A stretch of DNA of 62,984 nt from Verrucomicrobiia bacterium (GCA_035652955.1 DASRCU010000206.1:1-62984); one strand, 5' to 3'. Counted from the stretch's first letter, positions 3,941 through 49,014 are shown. The notes: a model not told the origin generated them from the letters alone. A program made the numbers and translations.

Positions 3941-4369
3941 TTATTGTCTGACCACCGAGATTTTACCGGCGTTGGGGTCGTAAACGATTTTGTAACCGTA
4001 CGGCGCTTGCGGCAGCTTGCCCAGATAATGCATGTCCACCATTTCCTGGAGGCTCTTGGGGTACCGGCCTTCAGCGGCGTTGAATTCCTGGATGGCGTGG
4101 TTGACGTAAGCCAGGTTGATCTGGTTTTCAGAATATTTCTCAGCCTGGACGACCACGCCGACGTAATCTGCCGGCGCGGTGAGCGGGTTGCCGCTGGCGT
4201 AATTGGGTGCCGGTGTGTGGGGCGCCGCGGCGTTGGTGACTGCCGGCGCCGCGTTGGTGACTGCCGGTGCGGCATTAGTGGAGGATGGCGGTGCCGGCGC
4301 AGATGTCTTTTGACTACAGCCGGCCAACACCAGGCCGGCCACGAGGGGAAGAACCAGTTTCGCTTTCAT
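3941..4369 (-). CDS. Small lipoprotein with Ala/Pro/Thr-rich linker
   Basis: MKAKLVLPLVAGLVLAGC is a signal peptide with a lipobox (LAGC). It is followed by tandem APAVTNA repeats and a ~90-aa C-terminal domain. Only the last 142 codons of track ORF 3941..5407 are used, because the remainder overlaps queE on the opposite strand. Confidence 0.75.
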   Translation of the reverse strand: MKAKLVLPLVAGLVLAGCSQKTSAPAPPSSTNAAPAVTNAAPAVTNAAAPHTPAPNYASGNPLTAPADYVGVVVQAEKYSENQINLAYVNHAIQEFNAAEGRYPKSLQEMVDMHYLGKLPQAPYGYKIVYDPNAGKISVVRQ

Positions 4370-4489
4370 ACTGCTAACATAATTCAATCGGCGGAAAATC
4401 CAAGCGGAACGTGCGCTGACAAAACTCGCTGCAGAGCGGCAACGTGAAAATGTTGTCGAATCCGCCATCTTTGCGTTTAACTTGGGAAG

Positions 4490-5233
4490 ATGGCCGATAC
4501 GCTGGTGGTCAACGAAATTTACTTGAGCCTGCAAGGGGAAAGCACCTGGGCAGGGTTGCCGTGCATTTTTATCCGCCTCACGGCCTGTGACCTGCGCTGC
4601 TCTTATTGCGATACCGCCTACGCCTTCGCTGAAGGCAAAAAAATGACGCTGGACGCCGTTCTGGCCGAGGTCCGGAAGCGGGCCGCGCCATTTGACGACC
4701 CGAAATCCGAAATTCACAATCCCAAGCTGCCGCTGGTGGAATTGACCGGCGGCGAGCCGCTGTTGCAAAAAAATTCGCTGCCCCTGATGCGTTTGCTGTG
4801 CGACGCGGGGTTCACCGTGTTGCTGGAAACCAGTGGTGCGCATGACCTTTCGGCGGTGGACCCGCGCGTGCGGCGCATCATGGACCTGAAATGTCCCGCC
4901 AGCGGCGAGGCAGCGCGCAATCGCTGGGAAAATCTGCGGCATTTGAAAGCCACCGACGAAATCAAGTTCGTCATCAGCACCGTGGAGGATTACGAATGGG
5001 CCAGGCAAAAAATCAGGGAATACCGCCTGGATTTGGTATGCCCTTTGCTGTTTTCCTGGGCGCATCCGCTGGCGCCGGAACAACGGCACCCGTCCTTGAA
5101 ACCGATGCCGCCGGGGCAAACGCCCATTTCGCGGCGCGAGCTGGCCGAACGCATCATCGCCGACGCGCTGCCGGTGCGGTTCCAGGTGCAGTTGCACAAA
5201 ATTATCTGGCCGCCGGAACAACGCGGAGTTTGA
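4490..5233 (+). CDS. queE: 7-carboxy-7-deazaguanine synthase (radical SAM)
   Basis: N-terminus LVVNEIYLSLQGESTWAGLPCIFIRLTACDLRCSYCDT carries the QueE-type CxxxCxxC radical-SAM cluster motif. The ~247-aa length is typical. Confidence 0.9.
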   Translation: MADTLVVNEIYLSLQGESTWAGLPCIFIRLTACDLRCSYCDTAYAFAEGKKMTLDAVLAEVRKRAAPFDDPKSEIHNPKLPLVELTGGEPLLQKNSLPLMRLLCDAGFTVLLETSGAHDLSAVDPRVRRIMDLKCPASGEAARNRWENLRHLKATDEIKFVISTVEDYEWARQKIREYRLDLVCPLLFSWAHPLAPEQRHPSLKPMPPGQTPISRRELAERIIADALPVRFQVQLHKIIWPPEQRGV

Positions 5234-5272
5234 CAGTAAGATGCGAACGGTGCCAGAAGACATTTGGGTCCA

Positions 5273-5324
5273 GGAAAATGGAACGCCGGCAAAACCGCGG
5301 TATTTCCATTTTCCGGCGGTTTTT
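5273..5324 (+). terminator. Candidate intrinsic terminator after queE
   Basis: GGAAAATGGAA (5273..5283) pairs with TTCCATTTTCC (5304..5314), and an inner CGCCGG/CCGGCG stem is possible. A T5 run follows at 5320..5324. It lies 40 nt after the queE stop. Confidence 0.4.
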
Positions 5325-5387
5325 GAAAAGGCCGGCGGCGAATGCCCGCGGAGGTGCGGCGCCGGGATTTGAATTGCAAATTGCTTT

Positions 5388-6695
5388 GTGTCCAAAACGA
5401 ACGCCATTCTGGAAATGCTGCGCGCCTATGAATCGCGCCAGGTGACCTTTCTGGCTGCGGACGATTCCTGGCCGATCGTGTGGGAGCGGGCCAAAGACGT
5501 GTTCGTCTGGGACGCTGACGGGAAGAAATACCTGGATTTGACCGCCGCCTTTGGCGTGGCCGCCGCCGGCCATGCCAACCCGAGCGTGGTCAAGGCCGGC
5601 CAGGCGCAACTGGCCCGTTTGCCGCACGCGCCGGGCGATTTTCATCCCCACGCGCGCAAGGCCGAGTTGGCGCGGGAGTTGAGTCGCGTCACCTTTGAAC
5701 AATGGAGCCAGAAAAGTGGCCGGACGATTTTCGGCAACTCCGGATTCGAAGCCGTGGAAGCGGCGCTCAAAACAGCCATTCTGGCTACCGGCAAACACGG
5801 CGTGGTGGTCTTCACCGGCGCGTATCACGGCCTGGGTTATGGCGCGCTGGTCACCACGCACCGCGATTTTTTCCGTAAACCGTTTTTGCCGCAGCTCCGG
5901 GAATTCGGCCATTTCGTTCCCTTCCCGGCGAGGTCTTCGGACCTGCCTGCCGTGGATTGGATGGTGCGCCGGCTTTTCCGCCGCGAATGGATCGGGGCCG
6001 TCCTCGTCGAGCCAATTCAGGCGCGGGGCGGCATCAACGTGCCCCCGCCGGAATTCCTGCCGCTGCTCCGCAAGTTGTGCGACGAACACGGCGCGCTGCT
6101 GATCCTGGACGAAATCTACACGGGCTTCGGACGCACGGGAAAAATGTTTGCCTGCGAGCATGCCGGCGTGACGCCCGACCTCATCTGCCTGGGCAAGGCG
6201 CTGACCGGCGGCTTCCCGCTCTCGGCCTGCGTGGGGCGTGCGGATATCATGGACGCCGCCTGGGCGCCCTCCAAAGGCGAGGCGTTGCACACCAGCACGT
6301 TTCTGGGCAACCCCGTCGGCTGCGCCATGGCGCTGGCCCAAATCGCGGAAATTGAAAAACTCAAACTGCCCGCCCGCGCCGCCGAGCTGGGGAAATTTCT
6401 GCTCCAGGAGTTGCAATCCCTCCAGGCCGAAAATTCCCATTTGAAATGCGAAGTGCAGGCGCGCGGCCTCGGCCTGATGGCCGGCGTGGAATTGCGCCGC
6501 ACCGATGGCACGCCCGCCACCGCCGAAGCCTTTGCCGCCGTCAGGAAGTTATTGCAACGCGGTTTCATTTTCCTGCCCGAAGGCGAATTCGGCAATGTCA
6601 TCAGCCTCACGCCACCGCTGACCATCACCAGGCCGCAACTGGCCAAAGCCGTGGCCGCGTTAAAGGAAACGCTGATGACCGACGACCTCCAGTAA
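5388..6695 (+). CDS. Class-III PLP-dependent aminotransferase (acetylornithine/GABA aminotransferase family)
   Basis: LILDEIYTGFGRTGKMFACEH...LGKALTGGFPLSA contains the class-III PLP-lysine region, and the ORF shows family-like similarity along its full length. The start (GTG 5388 or a downstream ATG) is uncertain. Confidence 0.88.
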   Translation: MSKTNAILEMLRAYESRQVTFLAADDSWPIVWERAKDVFVWDADGKKYLDLTAAFGVAAAGHANPSVVKAGQAQLARLPHAPGDFHPHARKAELARELSRVTFEQWSQKSGRTIFGNSGFEAVEAALKTAILATGKHGVVVFTGAYHGLGYGALVTTHRDFFRKPFLPQLREFGHFVPFPARSSDLPAVDWMVRRLFRREWIGAVLVEPIQARGGINVPPPEFLPLLRKLCDEHGALLILDEIYTGFGRTGKMFACEHAGVTPDLICLGKALTGGFPLSACVGRADIMDAAWAPSKGEALHTSTFLGNPVGCAMALAQIAEIEKLKLPARAAELGKFLLQELQSLQAENSHLKCEVQARGLGLMAGVELRRTDGTPATAEAFAAVRKLLQRGFIFLPEGEFGNVISLTPPLTITRPQLAKAVAALKETLMTDDLQ

Positions 6696-6954: not shown

Positions 6955-8169
6955 TCATTCGGGCATTTTCAACTTCAACTTGTCCGCCACCTGCGCCACG
7001 TCCTTATCGCCGCGACCGGAAAGGTTCACGAGGATGATTTGATCCTTGCTCATTTGAGGCGCGCGTTTCATCGCCTCGGCGACGGCGTGGGCGCTTTCCA
7101 GGGCCGGAATGATCCCTTCCAGCCGCGCCAGTTTCACGAAAGCCTCCAGCGCCTCTTTATCCGTGGCGTAAGTATATTCCACGCGCTTTTGATCGTGCAA
7201 CCAGGCGTGTTCCGGCCCCACGGCGGCGTAATCCAGCCCGGCGCTGATGCTGTGGGTGAGTTGAATCTGGCCAAACTTATCCTGCAAAAGGTAACTGCGC
7301 GTGCCCTGCAACACCCCCAATGACCCGCCGTGGAACCGCGCTGCATGTTGATTCGGCTTGATGCCCCGTCCACCTGCTTCCACGCCTACCATTTTCACGC
7401 TCGTCTCGTCGAGGAACGGATAGAACAAGCCCATGGCGTTGGAGCCGCCGCCGACGCAGGCGATGAGCAGGTCCGGCAGGCGCTTTTCCTTTTCCAAAAT
7501 CTGCGCGCGCGCTTCGTCGCCAATCACCCGCTGGAAATTCCGCACCATCACCGGATAGGGATGCGCGCCATAGACCGTGCCGAGGATGTAATGCGTCGTG
7601 CGGACGTTCGTCACCCAGTCGCGCATCGCCTCGTTAATGGCCTCCTTGAGCGTCTGCTGTCCGGCGTGGACGGGGACGACGTCCGCGCCGAGCATTTTCA
7701 TGCGATAGACGTTCAACTCCTGCCGCCGGCAATCCACCGCGCCCATGTAAATGACGCATTTCATCCCGAACATGGCGGCCACGGTGGCGGTGGCCACGCC
7801 ATGCTGACCCGCCCCAGTCTCGGCAATGACCCGCGTCTTGCCCATGCGCCGGGCCAGCAGAATTTGTCCCAGGCAGTTGTTGATCTTGTGCGCGCCGGTG
7901 TGCAGCAGGTCCTCGCGCTTGAGATAAATTTTCGCCCCGCCCTGTGCGCGGGTGAGGCGTTCAGCCGGGTAAAGCGGCGTAGGACGCCCGCAAAATTCCT
8001 TGAGGTAGCCGGAAAGTTCGCGCTGGAACTGCGGGTCGTGCTGGGCGCGGAAGTATTCGGCCTCCAGCTCCTGCAACGGGTGCATGAGCGTCTCGGGCAC
8101 GAACCGTCCGCCATAGGGGCCGAAATGCCCCCGCGCATCGGGCAGATTCTCCGCCGCAATCACACTCAT
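6955..8169 (-). CDS. trpB: Tryptophan synthase beta chain
   Basis: [23 protein letters not shown]...GRPTPLY...HTGAHKINN is canonical TrpB. I trimmed the track ORF to the ATG at 8169..8167 (MSVIAAENL...). No trpA is adjacent. Confidence 0.95.
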
Positions 8170-8253
8170 GCCGTCATTCTCACGCAAAAACGGGGGAGCG
8201 GAAAGAGAAATTTGACAGCCCGTTAAAAAAGTCTGTCGTGTGATCGAACCCGT

Positions 8254-8480
8254 TTGGGGATGAATCGTTCGATGAACCTGGCGTTGAACCTGGCGTTCGG
8301 CAAACGCAAATCCGAACAGGATGAACTGTTCATCCCCACAGCAAAAGCGGCCAGCAGCCACGGCCATCCGTTCTACGCCAGACTCAACCACGTATTAGCC
8401 GAAACCGGCTTTGATGAATTTGTCGAGAAGCTGTGCGCGCGGTATTACAAGGAAGGGGTCGGTCCGGAATTTCAGCCCCT
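8254..8480 (+). pseudogene. N-terminal fragment of an IS4/IS5-like (DUF772-type) transposase
   Basis: ...[47 protein letters not shown]... matches the conserved N-terminal region of this transposase class. It breaks off before the GRPS motif and runs into an IS3 fragment in the same reading frame. Confidence 0.5.
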
Positions 8481-8484
8481 TCCC

Positions 8485-8815
8485 ATTGGAGCGTTCCATC
8501 CACCCGTCGCGTCGCGGGCGCGCTACTGGCCGGTTAAAATAGCGCCCCGTATGAGTCGGCCCGCCAATTCCTACGGCCATGCCACGGCTGAATCCTTCAT
8601 GGCTACCCTTAGAACCAAATGCTTGGAATAAACATCCGCTTCGCGCACTGAAGCCAGATTAAATGTGTTCGATTACCTGGAAAACTTTTAGAACTCCAAG
8701 CGGCTCCACCGCGCCTTGGGCTACAAGTCACCTGTGGAATTTGAAAACCAGCTCGTTAAACGACAGCAACAAATCCGCCAAAAGCCCCATCCGCGCTTTC
8801 GAAGAAAGATCAACA
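8485..8815 (+). pseudogene. C-terminal fragment of an IS3-family transposase (OrfB/rve), with in-frame stops
   Basis: ...MSRPANSYGHATAESFMATLRTKCLE*...ARLNVFDYLENF*NSKRLHRALGYKSPVEFENQL reproduces the IS3 integrase-core tail (compare SR.GN.YDNA.AESFF.TLK.E ... VFDYIE.FYN.KRLHSALGY.SP.EFE). In-frame stops occur at 8629 (TAA) and 8689 (TAG). Confidence 0.7.
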
Positions 8816-9064
8816 GTGATCGGCGCCGATAAGAGCTTCAATGGCGTTCTGCCAGGTGCGGGGCTTCATGCCGTTGTCCGAACCGGCCAGATACGCCTTG
8901 GCGATTTGGAGATTCAGCACCGGCTGGCGCGTGGAATTGTTCTTGGCTTCGATGATCTGGCGCGCCTCGTCTTCGTTCGTGGTGCCCAGGCGGGTGCGTA
9001 TGCCAGTCGTGGTGTCCACGCAATATACAGGCAACCTCGAATGCCCCGACAGATTAAGCGACAA
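8810..9064 (-). pseudogene. N-terminal remnant of a tyrosine recombinase (phage-type integrase)
   Basis: The 84-aa ORF ...PVYCVDTTTGIRTRLGTTNEDEARQIIEAKNNSTRQPVLNLQIAKAYL...RTWQNAIEAL resembles the N-terminal arm/SAM-like region of island integrases. No catalytic domain follows, and the ORF abuts the IS3 fragment. The assignment rests on pattern recall only. Confidence 0.45.
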
Positions 9065-9250
9065 CGTGTTTTCATAATTTTCTCACGTAACCGCGAAGAT
9101 AAAATGAACTGACTCCGAACTGTTAGCGCGTAGCGGGCGAGTTACCCGGAGTTACGCTGGGTTCTTTCGGAGTTGGAAAACGGGTGTCCGCTTTGGCATC
9201 TGTTGCGGATCTCTCCGTCACCAAACCCTTGTAAATAAAGGCGTTTTATT

Positions 9251-9270
9251 TGGAGGTGGAGGTTGGAATC
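9251..9270. repeat. Partial copy of the 3' end of tRNA-Cys (att-like direct repeat)
   Basis: TGGAGGTGGAGGTTGGAATC (9251..9270) matches TGGAGGCGGAGGTCGGAATC (23429..23448) at 18 of 20 positions on the same strand. The latter is the 3' acceptor/T-arm end of the minus-strand tRNA-Cys. Confidence 0.65.
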
Positions 9271-9452
9271 TGGCTTCGACTCACACTACCTGTTGTATGA
9301 ATGCCATTTTTTATAGAGAACTAAATCGTAACCGGGAGTAACAGCAGGTGAACTTTTCGTAACAATCACTGGCAATTTCACCGGCAATTTTTCGCCGCTC
9401 TATTACCGCTCTTGCAGGTGCATCGTATCTGACTATGATTTGTTCCGCTGTC

Positions 9453-9530
9453 GGCGGGGGGCTAGCCAAGTGGTAAGGCAGGGCTCTGCAAAAGCCTCAT
9501 TCACCAGTTCGATTCTGGTCCCCGCCTCCA
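9453..9530 (+). tRNA. tRNA-Cys(GCA), structurally aberrant (possible pseudo-tRNA)
   Basis: Perfect 7-bp acceptor (GGCGGGG/CCCCGCC), anticodon stem GGGCT/AGCCT with loop CTGCAAA, T-arm ACCAG-TTCGATT-CTGGT and a 3' TCCA. However, 5 nt (GGCTA) rather than 2 lie between the acceptor and D stems. Confidence 0.7.
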
Positions 9531-9691: not shown

Positions 9692-10285
9692 TCAAGAGCC
9701 GTCCCAATCATCAGCCGCCTGAATAAAGTCCTCCATGGTGTTTGTGTTTCGATAAAATGCACGTTCCGATTTAGAGATCGAATGGAATCGAACCTGCCGC
9801 TCGCCGGCAACATGTCGAATAAAATTATGCAGCGAAGCATTAATATCAGCGGCCGCTTTTTGGACTGCCTCTCGAATTTCCACAGGATATATCGCGCACA
9901 ACGGCTCGAAATGTTCCGCGTTTCGCGGAACTACGGCAACGCCTGCATCGGCCATGGACCAGAGTTTTTCAAGATGCGCCACCGGCATTTGAGGCAAATC
10001 AACAGCCAACGCAAGCAAATGGGTTGTCTGAATTCTTTGAATCACCGCTGCCAAACCGCTCAACGGTCCGCGCGATGGCGGTTCATCCAAAACAACTTCG
10101 ATTTCCGGCGGACACCAAACAGGTTTAGTTCGCGCGGAAATCAAAATTTTCTGCGGCTGTAATTCACGCAGGGTTTTTAACTGTCGCAACCACAGCGGCT
10201 CACCGTTAATTTCGAGCGTTGCTTTGTCTCTGCCCATGCGACGCGATTCGCCGCCGACAAATAAAACTGCTGTCAGCGTTTTCAT
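9692..10285 (-). CDS. mobA: Molybdenum cofactor guanylyltransferase
   Basis: MKTLTAVLFVGGESRRMGRDKATLEINGEPL... is the MobA N-terminal LAGG.S.RMG.DK signature, and the ~197-aa length fits. The ATG at 10285 overlaps the upstream stop (ATGA). Confidence 0.9.
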   Translation of the reverse strand: MKTLTAVLFVGGESRRMGRDKATLEINGEPLWLRQLKTLRELQPQKILISARTKPVWCPPEIEVVLDEPPSRGPLSGLAAVIQRIQTTHLLALAVDLPQMPVAHLEKLWSMADAGVAVVPRNAEHFEPLCAIYPVEIREAVQKAAADINASLHNFIRHVAGERQVRFHSISKSERAFYRNTNTMEDFIQAADDWDGS

Positions 10286-10491
10286 TTTTCCAAGCGCAGT
10301 TTGCCATCGCTCAAAATCTGCGCACGCAAGCCGCCGCGATTTTGCAGGAAATGTTCCGCGCCTGGTGCAAATGCTTCGTTCATCCAATGACACGGCGCGC
10401 AATGCGCCGTGCCAAAAAAATTTCCCGGCGGCTCCCCGTGATGGCCGAAGTAATTGTGGCCGGGCGAAATATAGAGATGACAAACCTTCAC
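10282..10491 (-). pseudogene. MOSC-domain gene remnant (N- and C-terminal ends only, in frame)
   Basis: The 69-aa ORF starts MKVCHLYISPGHNYFGHHGEPPGN (N-terminus of a MOSC subfamily). It then jumps to FFGTAHCAPCHWMNEAFAPGAEHFLQNRGGLRAQILSDGKLRLE (the MOSC C-terminus with the conserved Cys and RGG..A.IL motif). About 80 residues of the barrel are missing. Confidence 0.5.
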
Positions 10492-10526
10492 GATTCAAAG
10501 ATGACATTTTTGTTTGCGAAGAAAAA

Positions 10527-12722
10527 TTATTTCTTCATCGGCTCCACGCGCACGGCGCAATATTTGTAATTCGGCTGGCGCGAGTGCGGGTCAAATTCGG
10601 CCCGCGTTAATTTATTGGCGATGCCATAGTGCATTGGAATGAAAACTTGTCCGGGCTGGACGCTTGCCGTTACAAATGCCGCGCATTCCACTTTTGCGCG
10701 CCGGGAAACAATCGCGACTTTTTTGTTCGGCTGAATTTTCAATCGCTTCGCATCCGCCGGATTGATTTCGACGTAGGCGTTCGCCGGATAAAGTTTGCGC
10801 AACACATCGGATTTTTCCGTGCGCGTGTTCGTATGCCATTGCGCGCTCGTGCCGCGGCCGGTCAAAAGCACGAATGGAAATTCCTCGTCAGTTTTTTCCG
10901 ATAATTTCCGCGGCGCCTCAAAAATAAATTTCGCCTTTCTGTCCGGCGTGAAAAACTTTCCATCGGCAAACAGTCGCCGCTCTTTTTCATTTTTCATTTT
11001 TTCCGGCAACGGCCATTGAATTCCGCCTTCCTCATCCAAATGCTTGTAATCGCGGATGCCCGTAATATCGCAGGGCTGACTGGCGCTCAATTTTTTCAAA
11101 ATTTGAAAAACAGCTTCCGGCGAATTCCATTCACGAAACATTTCGCCGCAACCCCATGCGTGCGCGACCAACTTGAAAATGTTGAAATCGCTCAACGCCT
11201 GCCCCGGAGCGCGACGAACTTTTTTCACGAGGCCGATGCGGCGTTCGGAATTGATGAGCGTGCCTTCCTTTTCGCCCCAGCCGGCGGCGGGCAAAAACAA
11301 ATGCGCTCGCTGCGCGGTTTCCGTCGTCGGATACAAATCCTGCACGACGAGAAATTCCAATTTGTCGGCGAGGCGATTAAAATTATTTTGGTCAATCCAC
11401 GAGTGCGAACTGTTCGTTGCCATAATCCACAATCCGCGAATTTCTCCATCGGCAATTCCTTGAACGATTTGGTCGTAAGCCCACGAATTTTTCGATGGAA
11501 TTTTTTCGACGGGGATTTTCAGAACTTCCGCAACTTTTGCGCGATGTTCCGCGTTCAGAAAATCACGCCCAAAAAGACTTGTGATATTTGCAAAAAGCCG
11601 CGAACCCATCGCGTTGCACTGGCCGGTGATGGAATTTGCACCCGTGCCGGGCTTGCCGATGTTTCCGGTCATCAAAGCCAAATTGATAATCGCCTGCGCC
11701 GTGCGCGTCGCTTCGTGACCCTGGTTTACGCCCATCGTCCACCAGAACGAAACCGCCTTGCCGCGATGGATTGTTTCGGCGAATTGCAAAATTTCGTCGG
11801 CGGACAAATTTGTTTCCGCCGCGACTTTCTCTAAAGTGAATTGTCGCGCGAAGTTCGCAAAATCACCAAAGCCGTTTGTGTTTCGTTCTATAAATTCGCC
11901 GTCAATCCAATTATTTTGAATCAGCAGATTTGCAATTCCGTAAAGCAAAATTAAATCCGATTTCGGTTTGAGTGCGACGTGTTGCGTTGCATTCATCGCC
12001 GTTTCCGTGCGGCGTGGATCCACGACGATGATTTGCGGATTCTTTTTGTTCCGCAATACGCGCTGCCACATAATCGGATGTGCGATGCACGGATTTGCGC
12101 CGACAAAAACTAAAACATCGCTCTCCTCAAAATCCGCATAAGTGAAAGGCGGCGCGTCAAAGCCAAAACTTTGCTTGTAAGCCGTGTGCGCGGTGGCCAT
12201 GCACTGCCGCGTGTTCGAGTCGCAATGCAGCGCGCCCATGCCAAATTTCCACAACGCACCGAGCAATGCCATTTCTTCCGTGCAAATTTGCCCGGTGCCG
12301 AGAAATGCGACGCTCTCGTTGCCATGTCGCGCCATGATGTCTTTGAATTTTCCGACGAATAATTTCATCGCCTCGTCCCACGTCGCAGGTTGAAATTTTC
12401 CCTTCTCATTACGGATTAATGGTGTCGTGCCGCGATCCGGCGCGGACAGCGGCGTCAACGCTTCCCAACCTTTTGGACATGCCATGCCGAGGTTAACCGG
12501 ATAATTTCCGTCCGCGCTCAAATTGATGGCTTCGCCGTTTTTCAAATGAATTTTCAAACCGCAGCCGGTCGAACAAAAGCCGCAGGTCATCGTCGTTGTT
12601 GCATCGGGTTTCAAACGGGCGGGAGTTTTGCCGAGACCGAACTTTCCCGGTTCAAGAACAAGTTCACTCGTCAGTGGGCCAGTCCATTCGCGCAAAACAG
12701 GTTTTGGGAATTTTAATTTCAC
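10527..12722 (-). CDS. nasA: Assimilatory-type (NasA/NarB-like) molybdopterin nitrate reductase catalytic subunit, no Tat signal
   Basis: N-terminal CGFCSTGCG...GMACPKG is the 4Fe-4S motif, and the MGD-family body ([32 protein letters not shown]) fits. Context is nrtABCD and mobA. The GTG start overlaps the upstream stop (GTGA). Confidence 0.88.
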
Positions 12723-14440
12723 GCGGTAATTCCTCCCGGCATCTTTCTGGCTGCGCCTGCGCGAAAGAAGACGTAGCGCGCGATAATTTCAGAAATCAAA
12801 GTCGTCAGTGCGAGTGCGCTTGTCCAAATAGCTGCCGTTCCAGCGATGTTGGCGATGGCGAGCAGGCAGAAAATTATCGAGGCGGCGAACAGGATCGTTT
12901 GCATGGAAGCGGTGCGCGGCAATAGTTCGCGGATCGCGCGGGCATTCAAATGAATCGGGCTGTTGAAATTTCCCAGTGCGCCGCGCAGTTCCATTTGTCG
13001 CCAGGCAAATAAAACCAGTTGTAAAACCAACACGACAATCAAAAACGGCTGGACGAAATTAAATTTGGCGAGCCATGCAAATATCGCGCCTGAAAATGTC
13101 GCACCAAGTAAAAATGTAGTTCCGAAAAATGCGCTAAACGAATGGCGCGGCGACCAGCATGCGCGCTTGGTGTCCACATAAACCATGCCGGAAATGAAAA
13201 CGCATCCGAGTCCGATGAATGCGGCAAAAATGGCCAGCGGCAATTGGAATTTTTCAACCGGTGAGAACACCGCGGGGATTTTTTGAAGCAACGATTCCAG
13301 TTTTGGAAATTTTTGAGAAAGAAACGGCAGCCACGCGAGCGCCGTCGCAGCGGCAGCAAATGGAGCAAAAAAATTGAAGGCAATGATTTCACGGCTCAAC
13401 CAACTCGTCCGCCAGCCGAGAAACGCGCGCCAGGCTTTTAACGGTTGCCCTAAATGCAGTGGTGCGGCCAGCAAACCGAAATTCAAAATCACAAACGCGG
13501 CGAGTTCCAAAATTTTTGTTTCAGGCGTTTGAGCAATTGCCGCCGCCAAAAACATTCCTGCGGCGGCTTGTGTGAATACGAGCATGAAAACAAGCGGCCA
13601 GTGCGGATTGTCCAATCGCGGCACGTCGCGGTCGGCGGAAAATATGGTTCCATTCAAATGCCGCTTTGAAAGGTAACGCGTCGTTGGCAGAGTAATTTTT
13701 GGATTCGGCGAATCGGGTAAAAATTTTGTAGCAGCCGATGTGAATCGGCTCTGACTGTTTTCAAAATGAGCGGACTCATGTTCGCTGCTACAGGAACTAT
13801 ATTGCGTCCTGATTTCATCCTGATTTACCAAAGTGATTTTAATCGCGCCGTTCGGACATGATTGCACGCACGCAGGCGCTTCGCCGACCGCGAGGCGGCT
13901 CATGCACATGTCGCACTTGCGGACGATGCCAAGCCTCTCGGAATACTTCGGCACTTCATACGGGCATTTCATCACGCAATACTGGCAGCCGATGCACTGG
14001 TCATCGAGATGCCGGACGATGCCGGTGGCCGGGTCTTTGTCGTAGGCTTTGACGGGACAACCGTTCAAACAGCCGGGGTCAACGCAATGATGGCATGCGC
14101 TCGTGATGGTTTGTTGAAATGATTTTTCATCCGCGATGCCGTGAAGCAATCCGACTTCGCGCCACGTTTCATTTTCGTCGAGGCCGTTGAGCGAATGGCA
14201 ACCGGCCACGCACGCTTTGCAGCCGGAACAAGCGTCGAGATTCACTTCGAACGCGTATTGCTCGCCGGGATTTGGCGAACGCGCGGGCATGAACGCGCGG
14301 TAAAATTTTTCGCCATTTGCATGGCCGTCGCGGTCGTGATGACGCGAAAATTTTTCGACGGCAGTAAGCGTGCGCTGCTCGGCGAGCAGTTCGTCAATCA
14401 ACGTGTGTGCGCTGTCCGAGGCGGCGAAGTCATTCATCAT
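12719..14440 (-). CDS. Fusion protein: DmsB/NrfC-like 4Fe-4S multicluster domain + DmsC/YnfH-type 8-TM membrane anchor
   Basis: The N-terminal half has [37 protein letters not shown] and CDMC...CVQSCP cluster motifs. The C-terminal half has ~8 hydrophobic helices of the DmsC type. No signal peptide. It is translationally coupled to nasA. Confidence 0.85.
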
Positions 14441-14633
14441 TTGTGAAAATGGCCTGCAACGTGTTCAGGTCATTGCGCACGGTGAATTTTTGAAACGATT
14501 CGCCCGACTGCCGGTGGCGCAAATAGTCTTCAACATTTTTTCCAGCGAGCAGACCGGGCATGTAACCGTTCAACCGCAAGCGTTGCTCGTGATTGAACGG
14601 CGCATTTGCCGGAATGAATGGCGCGAGTTGCAA
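14430..14633 (-). CDS. Small ORF (67 aa from TTG, or 43 aa from the internal ATG) wedged between the porin and FeS/DmsC genes
   Basis: It starts 4 nt after the porin stop, and its stop overlaps the FeS/DmsC start by 11 nt (ATGATGAATGA). It contains APFNHEQRLRLNGYMPGLLAG, reminiscent of the CysJ N-terminus and the NasA-CysJ linker, and GESFQKFTVRNDL...L. If it is not coding, the region is a 197-nt gap in an otherwise tight operon. Confidence 0.4.
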   Translation of the reverse strand: MQLAPFIPANAPFNHEQRLRLNGYMPGLLAGKNVEDYLRHRQSGESFQKFTVRNDLNTLQAIFTNDE

Positions 14634-14637
14634 TCGT

Positions 14638-16068
14638 TTAGAAATTGAATTCCACTTGCGCCCAGAATTTTTGGATGTCCACGCCGGACACAGTCAGCGA
14701 TGGCGCCGCCGCGTCCTGCCCCTGGTAGTAGGCGTATTTGACGAGCGCGGTCCAATACTTGCCAAATTTTCTGGACGCAACGACATCGAATTCCTGACCG
14801 TAACCGGCGTTGCCGAAGTCCGCGTCGTATTTATGAAATATGAAGCGCACCGGAATTTGCGCGGGCAAAGTGTATTGTGCGTAGGCATAAAAATCGCGTA
14901 AACCATTCGCGGGTGTGGAAAGAAAAACGTCATCCCAACCGTTGAATGCATGAAGCGTGGCCAGCGGCGTGCGGAACGAAGCGCGTCCGCCGCCTGCACC
15001 AGTGTTCGCGCCGCTGCCAAGGTCTTCGTAGCCCGCGCCGAACGCAAACGGTTTTATGCTCGCACCGGCTTCGAGGTTGTAATACTCCGTTCCATAACGA
15101 AGCAAACTGTCGGCGTAATCGGTCTGCCATGCGAATTCCGCGCGATAGTCGAGCGTGACCTTGTCGCTGACGGGCGCTTGTCCCGCAAAATAGCCGCCGT
15201 AAGTCGCGCAGGAATTGGCCGCGCCCGCCGCATTTTGCAAATCCAGCAAATAGGCATAGCCGACGAATCGTCCATATTTCCAGCCGGAATAGGAAATGTT
15301 GATCAAGTGCGAACGTGAATCAAAATCAGTATTCGCGGCGGGCAACCCCCCGACATTGCCAAAGACGCGATGAACGTCCCAGAGGTAGGCATAATACAAA
15401 TTGAGATGGTCAATCGGTTCGCTGCTCGCGCTCACGGCATCGTAGGTTTGCATATTCTGCCGCCAGCCGACGTCGCCGATGAAACGCTGGTTGTCGAGAT
15501 TGATTTGCTGTTCGCCGACTTTCGCCGAAATCCAATTCTCGTAGCTGTAACCCAGCCACGCTTGATCCAATCTTGTGATTGGCGGGTCGGCGACGACCGG
15601 CCGCGCGCCCTGGCCATTGGAACCCGCGGCGTTGTAATTGTGTTCCGGTCCGAGCACGGAGACATTCACGCCTTCGGCCATTGCCTGAAATCCGTAAAGC
15701 GGCGCGGTCGTGTAACCGACGCGCGTGCGAATCGTCGGCGCGTAAGAATCTTTTGTAATGGCGCCAACGCCTTCTTCATCCGCCTGCTCGTAACGCAAGC
15801 GGACATTGACATTCACCTTGCCTTTGGCGAGCGCACCAGGAATTTCCTTGTTGAAAAATTTACCAATTGGATTTGACGCCGGGGAATTGGTGGCGGACCC
15901 GGCGCTTGCGAGGGCAGCAACCCGGGGTGACGCGGGCGGCATCGGCGGTTGTGCCGTGCCCGCTGCCGCAAAGGGTTTTTGTTGCGCGAAGACGGATGCC
16001 GTGGCGGCAAGAACCAGCGCTCCACCGGTGAGAATTTTTTTTCGATTGTTGGTTTGGATTTTTTTCAT
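14638..16068 (-). CDS. Outer-membrane beta-barrel porin (alginate-export/OprP-like), putative nitrate/nitrite porin
   Basis: Signal peptide (ALVLAATASVFA/QQ), alternating beta-strand pattern rich in Y/G/N, and a C-terminal ...AQVEFNF with terminal Phe. It sits inside the nrt/nas operon. Confidence 0.7.
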   Translation of the reverse strand: MKKIQTNNRKKILTGGALVLAATASVFAQQKPFAAAGTAQPPMPPASPRVAALASAGSATNSPASNPIGKFFNKEIPGALAKGKVNVNVRLRYEQADEEGVGAITKDSYAPTIRTRVGYTTAPLYGFQAMAEGVNVSVLGPEHNYNAAGSNGQGARPVVADPPITRLDQAWLGYSYENWISAKVGEQQINLDNQRFIGDVGWRQNMQTYDAVSASSEPIDHLNLYYAYLWDVHRVFGNVGGLPAANTDFDSRSHLINISYSGWKYGRFVGYAYLLDLQNAAGAANSCATYGGYFAGQAPVSDKVTLDYRAEFAWQTDYADSLLRYGTEYYNLEAGASIKPFAFGAGYEDLGSGANTGAGGGRASFRTPLATLHAFNGWDDVFLSTPANGLRDFYAYAQYTLPAQIPVRFIFHKYDADFGNAGYGQEFDVVASRKFGKYWTALVKYAYYQGQDAAAPSLTVSGVDIQKFWAQVEFNF

Positions 16069-16095: not shown

Positions 16096-16899
16096 TCAAG
16101 CGGCGTTTGCCAAATTTGATTTCCTGTGCGCGCGTTCTTCGAGAAACGTGATGAGATGTTCGCGGCAACGGTAGTATTCGGAATTTTCCAGCAACGCGGT
16201 GCGGTTGCGCGGACGCGGAAATGGAATTTGTAAAATATCACCGACTCCGGCGGCGGGGCCGTTGGTCATCATCACCACGCGGTCGGCGAGAAAAATGGCT
16301 TCATCCACGTCGTGTGTGACCATCAAGGCGGTGAGCTGTGTCCGGCTCCACACATCGAGCAATACCTGTTGAAGTTCGAGCCGCGTCAATGAATCGAGCA
16401 TTCCGAATGGCTCGTCGAGCAGCAGCATTTTTGGCGAGAGCGCAAACGCGCGAGCGATGCCGACGCGCTGGCGCATTCCTTGCGAAAGTTCCGCGGGTTT
16501 TTTGTTCATCGCGTCGCCGAGACCAACAACCGTCAAATAATATTCCGCAATCTGACGCCGCTCGGTTTTGCTCGCGGTGAAAAAAACCTGGTTGACGCCG
16601 AGCATCACATTGTCAAACGCTGACATCCACGGCAGCAAACAAGGCGATTGAAAAACCACACCACGATCAGGACCCGCGCCGTTCAGTTCTTTTCCAGCCA
16701 AAATAATTCCGCCGCCGGAAATTTCGTTTAGCCCCGCGAGCATGGAAAGTACGGTGCTTTTGCCGCAACCGGAATGGCCGATGAGCGCGACGAACTCGCC
16801 CTTTTTGACGCGCAAATTGAAATCCTGAACGATGACCGCCGGGCCTTTCGGCGTCGGATAAATTTTCGCAAGATTGTCTATGACGAGATATTCGCTCAT
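16096..16899 (-). CDS. nrtD: Nitrate/nitrite ABC transporter ATP-binding protein
   Basis: Walker [29 protein letters not shown], signature LSQGMRQRV and Walker B LLLDEPF. This matches the NrtD/CmpD family pattern. Confidence 0.9.
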
Positions 16900-17807
16900 G
16901 CGTCCGCCTCCACGCGCTTGATTTCGCGGCGGCGAACCGGCTTCGTGCGATCGCCGAACGTGGCACGCGGAATCGCAAGGTCATCCGGCTCGATGTCCGG
17001 CAAAATTAATTTTTTCGTAATCGCCGTTTGCCGCTGGCCTTTGGAATTCAGCAAGAATTCAATAATCTCGCGCCGCAATTGCTTGAAATGCGGGTCGTGA
17101 TTGATGCCTTTGCGGTCGCGCGGACGCGGAATTTCGATTTGAAACGACGGCCCCAAAGTCGCGTTCGGTCCGGCGGTCAGCGGAATAATTCTGTCGGCCA
17201 AATAAATTCCTTCGTCGGGATCGTTCGTAATCATCACGATGGTTTTTTTGTCTTCCAACCAAATGCGGGAAATTTCGTCCTGCAACGTCGCGCGCGTCAG
17301 CGCATCGAGCGCGGAAAGCGGTTCGTCCAGCAAAAGAATTTGCGGATCCATCGCCAGCGCACGCGCCACGGAAACGCGCTGCCTCATCCCGCCGGAAAGT
17401 TCGCGCGGTTTTTTGTCGCGCGCCGCAGTGAGATTGACCATCGCGATGTATTTTTCGACGTGCTGCTTTTTCTTTTCCGCCGACCAGTTCGGATTTACTG
17501 ATTCCACCGCGAGTAAAATGTTTTCAAAGACCGACAGCCACGGCAGCAGCGAATAATTTTGAAAAACAATTCCGCGGTCCGGACCGGGTTCAGTGATTTC
17601 CAAATCATTCAACGTAAGCATGCCGGAATCCGGTTTGATCAAACCGGCAATGAGCGAAATCAACGTCGTTTTGCCCGCGCCGGAAAAGCCCACGATGGCG
17701 ACGAATTCACCTTTTTCGACACCAAGGTTAATATCGCGCAAGACTTCCGTTCGGCTGCCGCTCGCGCCGTAACCTTTGCTAACGTTTTGAAGTCTGAGAA
17801 ATCCCAT
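16896..17807 (-). CDS. nrtC: Nitrate/nitrite ABC transporter ATP-binding protein
   Basis: Walker [38 protein letters not shown] and [11 protein letters not shown]. It overlaps nrtD by 4 nt and lacks the cyanobacterial C-terminal NrtA-like domain. Confidence 0.9.
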
Positions 17808-17809
17808 GG

Positions 17810-18829
17810 TCAGATGGCTTTGGCGTCGTAACTGACAAGTCGTTGAAGGAGCAGCATCAAACGGTCGAGCGCGAACCCGATGAAGCCGATGGTGAACACA
17901 GCGACCATGATTTGCGCGAGCGTGTCACTGCTGCCGTTTTGGAACATGTCCCAGATGAATTTTCCAAGACCGGGATTTTGCGCGAGCATTTCAGCGGCGA
18001 TCAAAACCATCCAACCCACGCCAAGAGAAAGTCGCAATCCGGTAAAGATGTAAGGCAACGCGGACGGCAAAATGATTTTCCAAATCTGTTTCCACCAGCC
18101 GAGCTTGAGCACGCGTGCGACGTTGAGATAATCCTTGTCAATCGAAGCGACGCCGAGCGCGGTGTTGATGAGCGTCGGCCAAAGCGAACACATCGCGACC
18201 GTGATGGCCGAACTCAAAAATGCTTTTTCAAACCACGGATGCGGTGGATTATAGAGCGCGCTGACCATGATCATCACAATGGGCAGCCACGCCAGCGGCG
18301 AAACCGGTTTGAAAATCTGAATGAACGGATTAACCGCGTTGAAAAACGGGCGGCTCAATCCGCAAATGATTCCGACCGGCACGGCAATCAATGAGCCGAT
18401 GAGAAACCCGGTGAACACAGTCTCCAGGCTCGTGCAAATCTGGTCGAAGTAAGTCGGCGGACCGGAGTATTTAATGTCAGGGAAAGTTTGTCCGGGATTT
18501 TTTGCGAGAAAATCCGCACGCCGCTTGGCGAGTTCCTGATAAAATTCCGTTTCCTTCTGGCGCTCGGCCCAGTGCGCATCCCACAAGACTCCAGCTTGTT
18601 TCCAAACGGCCATCGGGCCGGGAATTGAACCGAAGTTGACTTTGACGTGCGACGCGACCTGCGACCAGATGAAAAGAAAAATCGCGAAAGAAATTAAGGG
18701 TGCGCCAATCGCAGAAAAAATTTTCCGCAGCCTTTCATCCGTTTCGCGGTTCGTGCGGACAGGCGGTTTTTGAGGAATAGTCGGAGCCTTTTCCATGACT
18801 GCTTCAACGTTGGCAACAGCTTCGTTCAT
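17810..18829 (-). CDS. nrtB: Nitrate ABC transporter permease
   Basis: 339-aa polytopic protein with the NrtB/CmpB-type long N-terminal extension and a BPD-transporter core (...[17 protein letters not shown]...). Confidence 0.9.
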
Positions 18830-18838
18830 GAATTTGAT

Positions 18839-20224
18839 TTAATCTTTCAGCCCCACTTTGAATTGATTGAGATAATCATTCGGTTTGCGGCCATCGAATG
18901 TAATGCCGTCAATGAAATTGCTGTCCGGCGCTTTAAAGCCGTCGGTTTCCGGAACATCGGTGGATTTGATTTTGCCCTCGGCGATCAACGCCTTTGCCGC
19001 CTGCAAATAAATTTCCGGGCGATAAATTTTTTTTGCCGTTGCCGCATACCATTCATCCGGCTTGGCCTCGGCGATTTGTCCCCAGCGGCGCATTTGCGTG
19101 AGAAACCAGATGCAATCGCTGTAAAACGGATAGGTCGCGTCATAACGGAAGAACACATTGAAATCGGGCAATGAACGTTTGTCGCCTTTTTGATACTCGA
19201 ACGTGCCGGTCATGCTGTTGGCGATGACTTTTTCGTCTGCGCCGACGTATTGCGGCTGCGACAAAATCCGGCAGGCCTTGACGCGATTGTCGTGGCTGGC
19301 ATCGAGCCATTGGCCGGCGCGAATCAACGCCTTCACGACCGCAATAAGTGTCTGTGGATTTTTTCCGGCCCACTCTTCCGTGACGCCAAAAACTTTTTCG
19401 GGATTATTTTTCCAGATTTCGTAATCGGTGATGACCGGGACGCCGATGCCTTTGAAAACCGCCTGCTCGTTCCACGGCTCGCCGACGCAGTAACCGCAAA
19501 TGGTTCCCTGCGCGAGCGTCGCGGGCATTTGCGGCGGCGGCGTGACCGAGAGCAAAACGTCGGCGTTCGTCGTGCCGGTCGTGTCACCGTTGATGTAATA
19601 ACCGGGACTGATTCCGGCGGCGGCGAGCCAGTAACGTAAATAGTAATTGTGCGTGGAAACGGGGAACACCATTCCGAATTTCAGCGGCGTTCCGGCGTCC
19701 TTATTGCGTTTCACGATCAGGGCGAGCGCGGACGCGGAAATCGGATGGGGCGGTTGCGGCACGTTCAATTTCGGGTCGGCTTCCTGCATTTGTTTCCAGA
19801 GGTCGTTGGAAACGGTGATGCCGTTGCCGTTCAAATCCATGCTGAACGGTGTGATGACATTTGCCTTCGTGCCGATGCCGATGGTCGCGGCAATGGGCTG
19901 ACCGGCCAGCATGTGCGCGCCGTCCAATTCGCCGCTGATGACGCGGTCGAGTAAAATTTTCCAATTCGCCTGCGCTTCGAGCGAAACGTAAAGTCCTTCG
20001 TCATCGAAATAGCCGTTCTCCTTTGCGATGACCAGCGGCGCGCAATCGGTCAATTTAATGAAACCGAATTTGAGCACGGGTTTTTCCACGGTGACGCCCG
20101 CAGCGCGCAACGCCAGCGGATGCAACGCGCCAAGCGCCGCGCCTGCCAGCACGCCTTTGGCCGTGGTTTTGAGAAATTGCCGACGCGTCGTTTCGCGGAA
20201 ATTGGAACTTAATTTTGAATTCAT
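18839..20224 (-). CDS. nrtA: Nitrate ABC transporter substrate-binding protein with Tat signal
   Basis: Twin-arginine [10 protein letters not shown], then [22 protein letters not shown]...[15 protein letters not shown], which is typical of CmpA/NrtA. Confidence 0.9.
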
Positions 20225-20252: not shown

Positions 20253-21107
20253 TCAGGCTTGAAGCAATTCTTCCGGCGAAGCAGCGGCGGTGGGCACAGC
20301 AATTGCCGCCGCGGATTTTTCTTTTTGAGGCGAATATGTCCAATAGAGAAAAAGTCCCGTGAAGAGAAATCCGCCGATGAGATTGCCGATGGTCACGGGA
20401 ATCTGATTCCAAATCCACCAACCGGCCAGCGACACTTTCGCGCCAAGCATCATGCCGGTCGGAATGACGAACATATTGACTACCGAGTGCTCAAAACCTT
20501 GCGCAAAGAACGTCAGAATCGGCAGCCACATGGCGACGATTTTGCCGACGGTGGATTGCGACGTCATCGCCATCACCAGGCCGAGGCAGACCATCCAATT
20601 ACACAAAATGCCTTTGACGATCACCGTAATCATGCCCGCTGTGCCGTGTGCGGCATAAGCGGTTGTCTTGGCTTCGGCAATGGCGACAATTTTGGCCGCG
20701 ATACCCGTTGGCGCTTCGCTGCCGCAACTCGTCAGTACCGCGTAAAGCAGCACGCCATAAATCAAACTGCCGATGAGATTGCCAACAAACACCCAAAATA
20801 AATTGGCGAAGACCCGTCGCCAGTTGTGGCGGCCAGCCACGCCCGCCAGCATCACCACGGCAAAGCTGCCGGTGACAAGTTCAAGGCCAAGCAGCACAAT
20901 CATCACGAAGCCGACGGGAAAAATCAGCGCGCCCACGAGCGGCACGCCGGTTTGCGCGGCGGCAGTGATGGCAAGGCTCGTGGCAAATCCCAGCAGCGCG
21001 CCGGACAAAATGCCGCGAATCAGCAGGTCTTTGATTGGCAGCCCGGCTTTGTTATCGCCGACGGCAAGCATGCTTTTCACAACTTCGAATGGTTTGATGT
21101 AGTCCAT
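20253..21107 (-). CDS. Formate/nitrite transporter (FNT) family channel, putative nitrite channel
   Basis: MDYIKPFEVV...LIRGILSGALLGFAT...FPVGFVMIVLLGLELVTGS... shows FocA/NirC-type motifs. I trimmed the track ORF to the ATG at 21107. Confidence 0.9.
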   Translation of the reverse strand: MDYIKPFEVVKSMLAVGDNKAGLPIKDLLIRGILSGALLGFATSLAITAAAQTGVPLVGALIFPVGFVMIVLLGLELVTGSFAVVMLAGVAGRHNWRRVFANLFWVFVGNLIGSLIYGVLLYAVLTSCGSEAPTGIAAKIVAIAEAKTTAYAAHGTAGMITVIVKGILCNWMVCLGLVMAMTSQSTVGKIVAMWLPILTFFAQGFEHSVVNMFVIPTGMMLGAKVSLAGWWIWNQIPVTIGNLIGGFLFTGLFLYWTYSPQKEKSAAAIAVPTAAASPEELLQA

Positions 21108-21131
21108 AGTTTTATTTGGTTGATGGTTTGC

Positions 21132-21208
21132 CTCACGCAACGGGCGCGAAGGACGCAAAGGAATTTTTATTTTCAAAACCTTTGCGGCCTTCGCGCTCTT
21201 TGCGTGAG
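21132..21208. promoter_or_regulatory. 77-nt near-perfect hairpin (30-nt arms, 17-nt A/T loop) 25 nt upstream of the FNT start
   Basis: Arm 21132..21161 against arm 21179..21208 gives 27 of 30 Watson-Crick pairs plus one G-U when folded. The loop is AATTTTTATTTTCAAAA. The NasS-like ORF stop lies inside the left arm. Confidence 0.6.
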
Positions 21209-21720
21209 ATTTCTTTCGCTTTGTTGAAAATGTCCGCGCGGAAAACTTTTTTACCGAGCGCGAAAGTTAAAGCGCTGGCGTCCTTGCAAAGTCCGCTGTC
21301 ACGCAAATGTTGAATGACCCACGCGGCTTTTTTGCCGTCCGGCTCGTTCGCGTCGTCGCGTGAAAAAATTGTAAAATCAGGCACGGTGCGTGTGAGGTCG
21401 TGACCGAAATCAAATTCGCCGCTCAAACCGCGGCGCAACGCCATTTCCGACGCGCCAACATATTCGCGCCGCGCCAGCGTGGCGGCAAAGGGCATTCCGG
21501 CGACGGCGTGCACGGCGTCCAATTCGCCGTAAATGACTTTGTCGCGAATCGTCGCCCAGCCGAGTTCGCGGTTCAAAACAACGTTGAGTCCGAATTTTTT
21601 GAACAGGCCAAGTTCCTGCGCCATCACCAGCGGCGCGCAGTCGGTCAGCGGCACGAAGCCGAGCCGCAATTTGTTGGATTGCGGACCTGAAGTTTTGGCA
21701 ATGGATATTTTTTTTATCAC
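21133..21720 (-). pseudogene. NasS/NrtA-like nitrate-binding protein gene with a large in-frame internal deletion
   Basis: Residues ~17-80 ([23 protein letters not shown]...GELDAVHAVAGMPFAATL) align with the start of the window's own NrtA. The sequence then continues directly with the C-terminal region (REYVGASEMALRRGLSGEFDF...VPDFTIFSRDDAN..., compare Nrt[22 protein letters not shown]...[13 protein letters not shown]). About 225 residues are missing and there is no signal peptide. Confidence 0.55.
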
Positions 21721-48957: not shown

Positions 48958-49014
48958 GCGGTTACAAAAACGGCGTCAGATTATCATTGCCTGTGGACGG
49001 CTTTGCGCCAAGCT

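Follow-up and report, generated by a model that had tools for sequence, protein, structure and literature searches.

Where does a Nas-type nitrate reductase obtain its electrons when its gene is translationally coupled to that of a membrane-anchored iron-sulfur (FeS) protein? This question is raised by a nitrate gene cluster on a 62,984-nucleotide (nt) stretch of DNA from a Verrucomicrobiia bacterium (GCA_035652955.1 DASRCU010000206.1:1-62984; the whole stretch is referred to as the 63-kb window, and coordinates are counted from its first letter), in which the gene for a Nas-type molybdenum (Mo) subunit directly follows the gene for a protein that fuses a DmsB-like and a DmsC-like module. Bacterial nitrate reductases are classically divided into Nar, Nap and Nas, of which Nas is regarded as soluble and as fed by ferredoxin or flavodoxin or by NAD(P)H. 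Our analysis of sequences, predicted structure and gene neighbourhoods makes it likely that the two proteins form a cytoplasm-facing, membrane-bound assimilatory nitrate reductase fed by the quinol pool and built from two polypeptides and three modules. All functional statements on the fusion/NasA pair made here are predictions.

The two genes lie side by side on the minus strand:

12719-14440 (minus strand), gene for the DmsB-DmsC fusion protein, 573 amino acids (aa), ATG start (open reading frame (ORF), translation, Pfam and NCBIfam)
10527-12722 (minus strand), gene for the Nas-type catalytic subunit with a Mo-bis(pyranopterin guanine dinucleotide) (Mo-bisPGD) centre, 731 aa, GTG start (ORF, Pfam and NCBIfam)

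The original prediction had described the two coupled ORFs within 10527-14440, the size of 573 aa for the fusion, a C-x2-C-x3-C-x27-C cluster and no twin-arginine translocation (Tat) signal on the Mo subunit, a four-cluster ferredoxin domain fused to an eight-helix DmsC-type anchor, no signal peptide and a cytoplasmic FeS domain, a GTGA overlap between the genes, and nrtABCD and mobA as neighbours. Each of these points was borne out, as was its assignment of the Mo subunit to the nitrate reductases; the subunit does not group with formate dehydrogenases.

The fusion protein is divided into the following regions, the last line giving a loop within the anchor:

14261-14440 (minus strand), family-specific N-terminal region, residues 1-60, conserved in a 15-sequence alignment
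13826-14260 (minus strand), four-[4Fe-4S] ferredoxin domain, DmsB/FdnH-like, residues 61-205 (Cys positions; Protein Data Bank (PDB) sequence matches)
13592-13825 (minus strand), variable-length linker, residues 206-283 (15-sequence alignment)
12767-13591 (minus strand), haem-free DmsC/NrfD-type anchor with eight transmembrane (TM) helices, residues 284-558 (hydropathy, AlphaFold2 (AF2), Pfam, hidden Markov model (HMM) and Foldseek)
13388-13456 (minus strand), predicted quinol-site loop between TM2 and TM3, with H329 and E351 (HMM alignment; role from PMC8076601)

Four ferredoxin-type Cys groups (71/74/77/81, 116/119/124/128, 149/152/155/159 and 176/179/191/195) were found in the FeS domain, and all 16 cluster Cys residues are invariant in the 15-sequence alignment, whose members share 55-77% identity. 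Pfam placed Fer4_11 at residues 113-202, and the best NCBIfam match of the fusion was DMSO_dmsB at 124 bits, below the cut-off of 214. In a PDB sequence search the nearest solved homologues of the FeS domain were FdnH (1kqf_B, E = 4e-22), PsrB, ArrB and NarH (E = 1e-12). The linker carries the conserved motifs FLPDSPxPxITLPTTR and RLDxxHWPL, running into TM1. The N-terminal 60 residues, which contain no signal peptide and for which AF2 predicted helices with low confidence, may contact NasA. Databases name the protein only generically, as 'DmsC/YnfH family molybdoenzyme membrane anchor subunit' or 'formate dehydrogenase iron-sulfur subunit'.

The membrane half is indeed DmsC/NrfD-like. Pfam DmsC (PF04976) matched residues 279-559 over profile positions 6-273 of 275 (E = 1e-14; 55 bits, cut-off 22.3), and an HMM of the family aligned E. 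coli DmsC residues 7-275 (E = 7e-14). Eight hydrophobic helices were located, seven from the hydropathy scan and one at about 538-558. An AF2 model computed from the 15-sequence alignment had a predicted local distance difference test (pLDDT) score of 80-94 in the membrane helices, and Foldseek matched this domain to the quinone-binding subunits PsrC (TM-score 0.62) and ActC (0.49). H329 and E351 align with His65 and Glu87 of E. coli DmsC; both are invariant in the 15 sequences, and so is nearly every position of the TM2-TM3 loop. His65 and Glu87 are needed for menaquinol oxidation and binding, and DmsABC mutated at these residues oxidizes menaquinol poorly or not at all (Calisto and Pereira 2021, PMC8076601).

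On which side of the membrane would this module work? The first TM helix of the fusion begins only at residue 284, and the protein therefore has no signal peptide; no Tat or Sec signal was detected in either the fusion or the Mo subunit. The TM2-3, TM4-5 and TM6-7 loops and the C-terminus share the side of the FeS domain. These FeS-side loops hold on average 15.8 Lys and Arg residues against 2.8 on the other side, and the FeS side was the higher in all 117 homologues compared (117/117), while E. coli DmsC, scored with the same boundaries, has the opposite bias (3 versus 6). Because of this charge bias and the lack of Tat or Sec signals, we place the FeS domain, the N- and C-termini and the predicted quinol site in the cytoplasm, a topology supported by sequence. 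The geometry of FeS module and anchor would then be that of DmsABC, with the whole unit flipped across the membrane. A periplasmic orientation, reached by Tat hitch-hiking, was also considered and was ruled out, since neither protein family has a Tat motif and the positive-inside bias is strong.

The Mo subunit has three features that bear on its identity:

12591-12722 (minus strand), clade-specific non-Tat N-terminal extension, residues 1-44, conserved in 40+ orthologues
12477-12584 (minus strand), FS0 [4Fe-4S] motif C-x2-C-x3-C-x27-C formed by C47, C50, C54 and C82 (Cys positions; Molybdop_Fe4S4)
12201-12203 (minus strand), codon of Cys174, predicted to ligate Mo and part of the motif NTRQC-M-ATA (counterpart of Cys140 in the alignment with D. 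desulfuricans NapA)

Pfam recognized Molybdop_Fe4S4 (E = 2e-9), Molybdopterin (E = 1e-59) and Molydop_binding (E = 1e-28), the short form of the enzyme without the C-terminal 2Fe-2S domain. An RR motif and a hydrophobic N-terminal stretch are both lacking, and the S/T-RRxFL motif is absent from this subunit and from 43 orthologues. The best solved-structure match was the monomeric NapA of D. desulfuricans (2NAP, E = 4e-100). The NTRQC-M motif is kept in all 12 sampled orthologues, and the R-x-C-M ligand motif is common to Klebsiella Nas, Ensifer Nas and NapA, where FdhF has R-V-U-H. Identity was 32-35% to plasmid-borne nitrate reductases annotated beside nirB/nirD, 30.8% to proteobacterial NapA and 28.7% to FdhF. 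In a neighbour-joining tree the family forms a separate clade within Nas/Nap, the nearest outsider being a Cetobacterium enzyme (44%).

The NCBIfam scores of the Mo subunit are less clear-cut. The highest, 495 bits, came from the broad Fdh-alpha model, and every equivalog cut-off was missed: NasA_Halo (NF041323) gave 467 bits with a cut-off of 1000 and NasC (NF047855) 431 bits with a cut-off of 1100. The best matches belong to Nas/Nap/Fdh; dmsA_ynfE gave 137 bits against a cut-off of 778, and TIGR03479 (type II DMSO reductase family alpha subunit) matched weakly. Because no equivalog cut-off was reached, the Mo subunit is Nas-like yet outside the curated NasA and NasC families. Might it act on formate or another oxyanion, so that the module would be a substrate:quinone oxidoreductase like SoeABC or FqoABC? 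The Fdh-alpha and equivalog scores leave room for this, as does SoeABC, the sole described N-side (cytoplasm-facing) NrfD-type complex, which runs towards quinone (PMC8076601). However, the Cys-Met ligand motif is of the Nas/Nap and not the Fdh type, the identities given above favour nitrate reductases over FdhF, and the genes are invariably located with nitrate transporters and nitrite reductases, which together make another substrate very improbable. On ligand motif, identities and gene context, a formate dehydrogenase, the candidate that the top score had prompted, was ruled out.

The N-terminal extension of about 40-44 aa, with the motif LRxWxGPLTxxLVxxPGxFGLGxxPARLKPD, occupies the position of the Tat signal in periplasmic enzymes. 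It is absent from the unpartnered Nas homologues of Klebsiella, Ensifer and Cetobacterium, in which 7-9 residues precede the first Cys. NarG docks on NarH through its N-terminal tail, and we infer that the extension may likewise help to dock the Mo subunit on the FeS domain. The closest homologue outside the family, on a Cetobacterium somerae plasmid (locus L082, 5986-8998; 44% identity), lacks both the extension and a fusion partner and adjoins a SLAC1/TehA-type anion channel and molybdenum cofactor (Moco) genes.

Are the two proteins made for each other? Their genes meet at the following junction:

12719-12737 (minus strand), coupling junction with Shine-Dalgarno sequence and start/stop overlap (sequence inspection)

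The GTG start of the Mo subunit overlaps the TGA stop of the fusion gene as GTGA at 12719-12722 (GCGTGAAA), and a GGGAGGA Shine-Dalgarno sequence lies within the end of the fusion gene at 12731-12737, 8 nt 5' of the GTG. We then compared related loci, counted among the best 80 of at least 570 confirmed loci in species-representative genomes; nearly all are from Verrucomicrobiota, with one Kapaibacterium and one Pirellulaceae. Among the matches listed, the fusion has thousands of homologues, including one identical protein (P0001), and the closest come from Limisphaerales and other Verrucomicrobiota metagenome-assembled genomes. A nasA orthologue stands directly downstream of the fusion on the same strand in 69 of the 71 loci with downstream sequence, and of 77 related loci compared at this junction, at least 50 have the two genes overlapping by 4 nt or 1 nt or separated by a single nucleotide. 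The two exceptions, L040 and L075, have the fusion after nirA and nasA not next to it; in L075 subtilase genes follow the fusion instead. One locus (L057) has two nasA-like genes (9963-11927 and 12933-15053) downstream of a single fusion gene.

This arrangement persists in distant relatives. A search with the membrane domain only, against 1.84 billion representatives, returned 634 clusters at E<=1e-10, and the full-length matches were fusions. Unfused DmsC-like relatives were looked for among the short matches; those examined were contig-edge fragments, giving no evidence for split versions. Even where the membrane domain is only 33-34% identical, the fusion gene in nitrate-assimilation clusters is followed by an overlapping Mo-subunit gene; one of these clusters (L090) has NirB-NirD in place of NirA/CysJ. 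Taken together, the synteny in 69 of 71 loci, the translational coupling and the persistence in distant relatives support a dedicated partnership of fusion and NasA.

We therefore turn to the electron path that such a partnership would allow. Quinol, probably menaquinol, would be oxidized on the cytoplasmic face, at the DmsC-type site of the TM2-TM3 loop (H329/E351); the four [4Fe-4S] clusters in the DmsB-like part of the fusion would carry electrons to FS0 and on to the Mo-bisPGD centre with its Cys174 ligand; and this centre of the Nas-type subunit would reduce nitrate brought in by NrtABCD. The nitrite would be handed to a separate nitrite reductase, which in relatives is NirA with a CysJ-like protein or NirBD and of which none is encoded in the window. 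Electron flow from menaquinol to nitrate is strongly exergonic by redox potentials. The protons released from quinol and those used in nitrate reduction would be on the same side. Because haem b is absent and both half-reactions are placed on the cytoplasmic side, the nitrate reduction step itself is probably non-electrogenic, like that of DmsABC but mirrored. With electrons passing by way of the quinone pool, the dehydrogenases upstream of it would be able to conserve energy, and neither ferredoxin nor NAD(P)H would be needed for the nitrate step.

A bolder version, which we regard as doubtful, is that the inverted NrfD/DmsC-type module is energy-converting, with the menaquinol-nitrate drop of ~0.5 V releasing or translocating protons to the periplasm through half-channels of the kind proposed for NrfD-like subunits. 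If so, Verrucomicrobiota and some Planctomycetota and Bacteroidota would gain proton motive force directly from assimilating nitrate, and the enzyme would form, in bioenergetic terms, a fourth class of bacterial nitrate reductase, in which the line between assimilation and respiration is blurred.

Several observations weigh against the quinol-fed reductase, besides the NCBIfam scores given above. The FeS domain is poorly modelled by AF2 (pLDDT <50 over most of residues 72-195), and the complete genome of Luteolibacter sp. Populi (L075) carries the fusion at 7866-9515 without an adjacent nasA. Moreover, a CysJ-like NADPH diflavin reductase is encoded in 54 of 80 related loci, and NirBD in one distant locus; either could in principle reduce NasA, and a soluble ferredoxin or flavodoxin from elsewhere in the genome may also serve as its donor. 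Analogous donors are those of the mycobacterial NasN fusion and of the Klebsiella and Paracoccus systems. The absence of a canonical donor, claimed by the original prediction, holds for the 63-kb window, across which no NirB/NasB/CysJ-like or NirA-like gene was found (tblastn; Pfam on the other ORFs), but not for most relatives, which have a CysJ-like reductase or NirBD in the operon.

These genes open an alternative in which a soluble donor reduces NasA (NADPH through the CysJ-like protein, NADH through NirB, or ferredoxin/flavodoxin) and the fusion is accessory, tethering NasA at the membrane beside the transporter or shunting surplus electrons to or from the quinone pool. The frequency of the CysJ-like gene and the NirBD of L090 are in its favour, and the short-type NasA is similar in size to ferredoxin-dependent NarB and NasC-type enzymes (PMC7331816). 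However, the cysJ-like gene always travels with nirA and not with nasA. The cysJ/nirA pair varies in its internal order and lies on either side of the fusion-nasA pair, which itself stays together and in the same order throughout. The cysJ-like gene is missing from the window and from the full-length loci L055, L062, L024, L074 and L056, where the fusion is always present; a plain tether needs neither 16 invariant cluster Cys residues nor an invariant quinol-site loop; and translational coupling implies stoichiometric co-assembly of the fusion and NasA. An accessory fusion is thus unlikely. In about 52 loci the CysJ-like gene (flavodoxin-FAD-NADPH reductase) adjoins the NirA-like gene (for example L042:4420-6180 and L074:6171-7940), which suggests a CysJI-style NADPH nitrite reductase.

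The quinol-fed reductase is further framed by its own gene cluster. From 9.7 to 21.2 kb the minus strand carries a single tightly packed nitrate gene cluster, as defined by ORF calls, Pfam and NCBIfam, in the order FNT, nrtA-like, nrtB, two NrtC/D ATPases, porin, DmsB-DmsC fusion, Mo subunit and MobA-like. The genes other than the fusion and the Mo subunit are:

20253-21176 (minus strand), formate/nitrite transporter (FNT) channel, cluster gene 1 (Pfam Form_Nir_trans, E = 8e-68)
16096-20224 (minus strand), nrtD, nrtC, nrtB and nrtA-like genes of a nitrate ATP-binding cassette (ABC) transporter (TIGR01184, ntrB and NMT1_2 matches), comprising the next three lines
18839-20224 (minus strand), NrtA-like binding protein (NMT1_2 match)
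17810-18829 (minus strand), NrtB permease (ntrB match)
16896-17807 and 16096-16899 (minus strand), two NrtC/D ATPases (both above the TIGR01184 cut-off)
14638-16068 (minus strand), Alginate_exp-like outer-membrane porin (Pfam; kept in related nitrate operons)
9692-10507 (minus strand), MobA-like molybdenum cofactor guanylyltransferase (Pfam NTP_transf_3; NCBIfam MobA models below cut-off)

The MobA-like protein would make the bis-PGD cofactor, and the porin, also present in 31 of 80 related loci (for example L063:3005-4513), is presumably an anion-selective pore for nitrate entry. A NirA-like sirohaem nitrite reductase is encoded in 62 of 80 related loci, and most loci also have the porin and either NrtABCD or a major facilitator superfamily (MFS) transporter. 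In loci with an MFS nitrate transporter instead of or alongside NrtABCD, the MFS gene is followed by a fused PP2C phosphatase/Ser-Thr kinase gene (L032:2834-4531; compare L050:1213-2418), whose product may be a post-translational regulator of uptake. Rfam, promoter and terminator scans of the nitrate operon revealed nothing informative on its regulation.

Would the reduced nitrate be assimilated at all? The same quinol-to-nitrate enzyme could serve mainly for dissimilation or redox balancing, as a cytoplasmic haem-free analogue of Nar whose nitrite is exported through FNT. The 63-kb window holds no nitrite reductase gene while the operon includes the FNT channel; quinol-linked enzymes are typical of respiration, and the upstream dehydrogenases would conserve energy. 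Such a use is nevertheless quite unlikely, given an ATP-consuming, high-affinity NrtABCD importer and the almost universal linkage to assimilatory sirohaem nitrite reductases in related loci; the window is also only part of a genome, in which a nitrite reductase may sit elsewhere.

The surroundings of the cluster were examined as well. Two non-identical tRNA-Cys(GCA) genes, at 9456-9530 (plus strand) and 23429-23503 (minus strand), flank the whole nitrate cluster in inverted orientation. The ~14 kb between them have a GC content of 0.50-0.56, compared with ~0.60 in the flanks, and contain a DDE transposase fragment at 22739-23227. Because of the lower GC content and the transposase fragment between the inverted tRNA-Cys genes, this segment may be an acquired island. 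A 195-aa ORF at 21133-21720 (minus strand) matches the NMT1_2/NrtA profile over its N-terminal 73 positions only, and a 66-nt stretch at 21479-21544 is 73% identical to nrtA at 19884-19949; the ORF looks like the remnant of a second, tandem nrtA copy, which is intact in L019 and L069. Farther away, a cyclic di-AMP (ydaO/yuaA) riboswitch was detected at 58543-58705 (plus strand; 66 bits, above the Rfam gathering score), adjoining an opposite-strand ORF at 58070-58549 (minus strand) and upstream of an ORF at 59180-60925 (plus strand). Four large ORFs, at 34204-37503 (plus strand), 48976-51924 (minus strand), 3941-5407 (minus strand) and 174-1826 (minus strand), encode 1099, 982, 488 and 550 aa, respectively; Pfam matched none of them at E<=0.001, and for three the check was extended to E<=0.01.

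How far does this depart from what has been described? The full-text literature searched yielded no account of a Nas enzyme partnered by DmsB/DmsC. A survey of NrfD-like complexes includes no nitrate reductase and has SoeABC as the only N-side complex (Calisto and Pereira 2021, PMC8076601), and in genome papers the annotation for verrucomicrobial methanotrophs is limited to NasA/NasC and NirB. According to Wells et al. 2020, canonical four-cluster or anchor subunits accompany none of the enzymes in the Nas/Nap/Aio/Fdh clade (PMC7331816). The combination of Nas catalytic chemistry with a flipped, fused Dms-type module for electron input, as predicted here, would thus be widespread and unrecognized. 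If the prediction is true, this published claim is contradicted, and Verrucomicrobiota, which are abundant in soils, lakes and oceans, together with some Planctomycetota and Bacteroidota, assimilate nitrate with a membrane-bound, quinol-driven Nas. It would add a new electron-donor class for Nas and, after SoeABC, a second inverted NrfD/DmsC anchor. Nitrate assimilation would be powered from the respiratory quinone pool and thereby linked to how reduced or oxidized the respiratory chain is, and metagenome annotations such as 'nasA', 'DmsC/YnfH family anchor' and 'formate dehydrogenase iron-sulfur subunit' would have to be read differently.

Which known system, then, does the predicted enzyme resemble most? 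With NasA, NasC and NarB it shares the three-domain catalytic subunit, FS0, the Cys-Met motif, the lack of a Tat signal and the cytoplasmic location, as well as an operon with nitrate transporter and Moco genes and, in relatives, nitrite reductase. Those enzymes take electrons from ferredoxin/flavodoxin, or from NAD(P)H through NasC/NasB/NirB/NasG, whereas the partner here is a membrane-integral DmsB-DmsC fusion and not a soluble flavoprotein, Rieske protein or ferredoxin. The Mo subunit also differs from them in its ~44-aa N-terminal extension, its identity of 32-35% to proteobacterial Nas and its scores below the NCBIfam Nas cut-offs. Nap with NapGH offers the closest solved catalytic subunit (NapA) and likewise links to quinol through a four-cluster protein and a membrane protein; in contrast, there is no Tat signal and no NapB, NapC or NapD here, NapH does not belong to the DmsC family, and the orientation is opposite.

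DmsABC and other complex iron-sulfur molybdoenzymes (CISM; PsrABC, TtrABC and ArrABC) have the same plan, a Mo-bisPGD subunit, a four-[4Fe-4S] protein and a haem-free 8-TM NrfD/DmsC anchor, and the His/Glu pair of the DmsABC quinol site is kept, with FeS module, anchor termini and quinol site on one side. Unlike their Tat-exported catalytic dimer on the periplasmic (P) side, the assembly here would be on the cytoplasmic side without a Tat signal, its B and C modules are fused in a single chain, and its catalytic subunit comes from the Nas/Nap/Fdh clade and not from the DmsA, Psr, Ttr, Arr or NarG lineages. SoeABC of Allochromatium vinosum and Aquifex aeolicus, as described, shares the inverted anchor with N-side Mo and FeS modules; it is the only NrfD-type complex proposed to face the N-side, and SoeC has His65/Glu87 and eight TM helices (PMC8076601). 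By the same description, electrons in Soe run from the substrate to quinone, whereas here they should run from quinol to nitrate; SoeB and SoeC are not fused; and the catalytic subunit and the pathway (sulfur oxidation versus nitrate assimilation) differ.

NarGHI, finally, shares the quinol-to-nitrate flow, a cytoplasmic active site and a four-cluster subunit, NarH being a detectable homologue (E = 1e-12), and Nar serves assimilation in mycobacteria. However, no NarI dihaem cytochrome b is present here and hence no transmembrane redox loop; the Mo subunit is a Nas-like protein of 731 aa and not a NarG-type one of about 1200 aa, and no NarJ is encoded. The original description of the enzyme as Nar-like therefore stands in part, for the quinol-to-nitrate flow, and fails where the cytoplasmic quinol site and the lack of haem b leave no Nar-type redox loop to be expected. 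Because haem b is lacking, the predicted enzyme would be more like an inverted DmsABC, or a SoeABC running in reverse, than like Nar.

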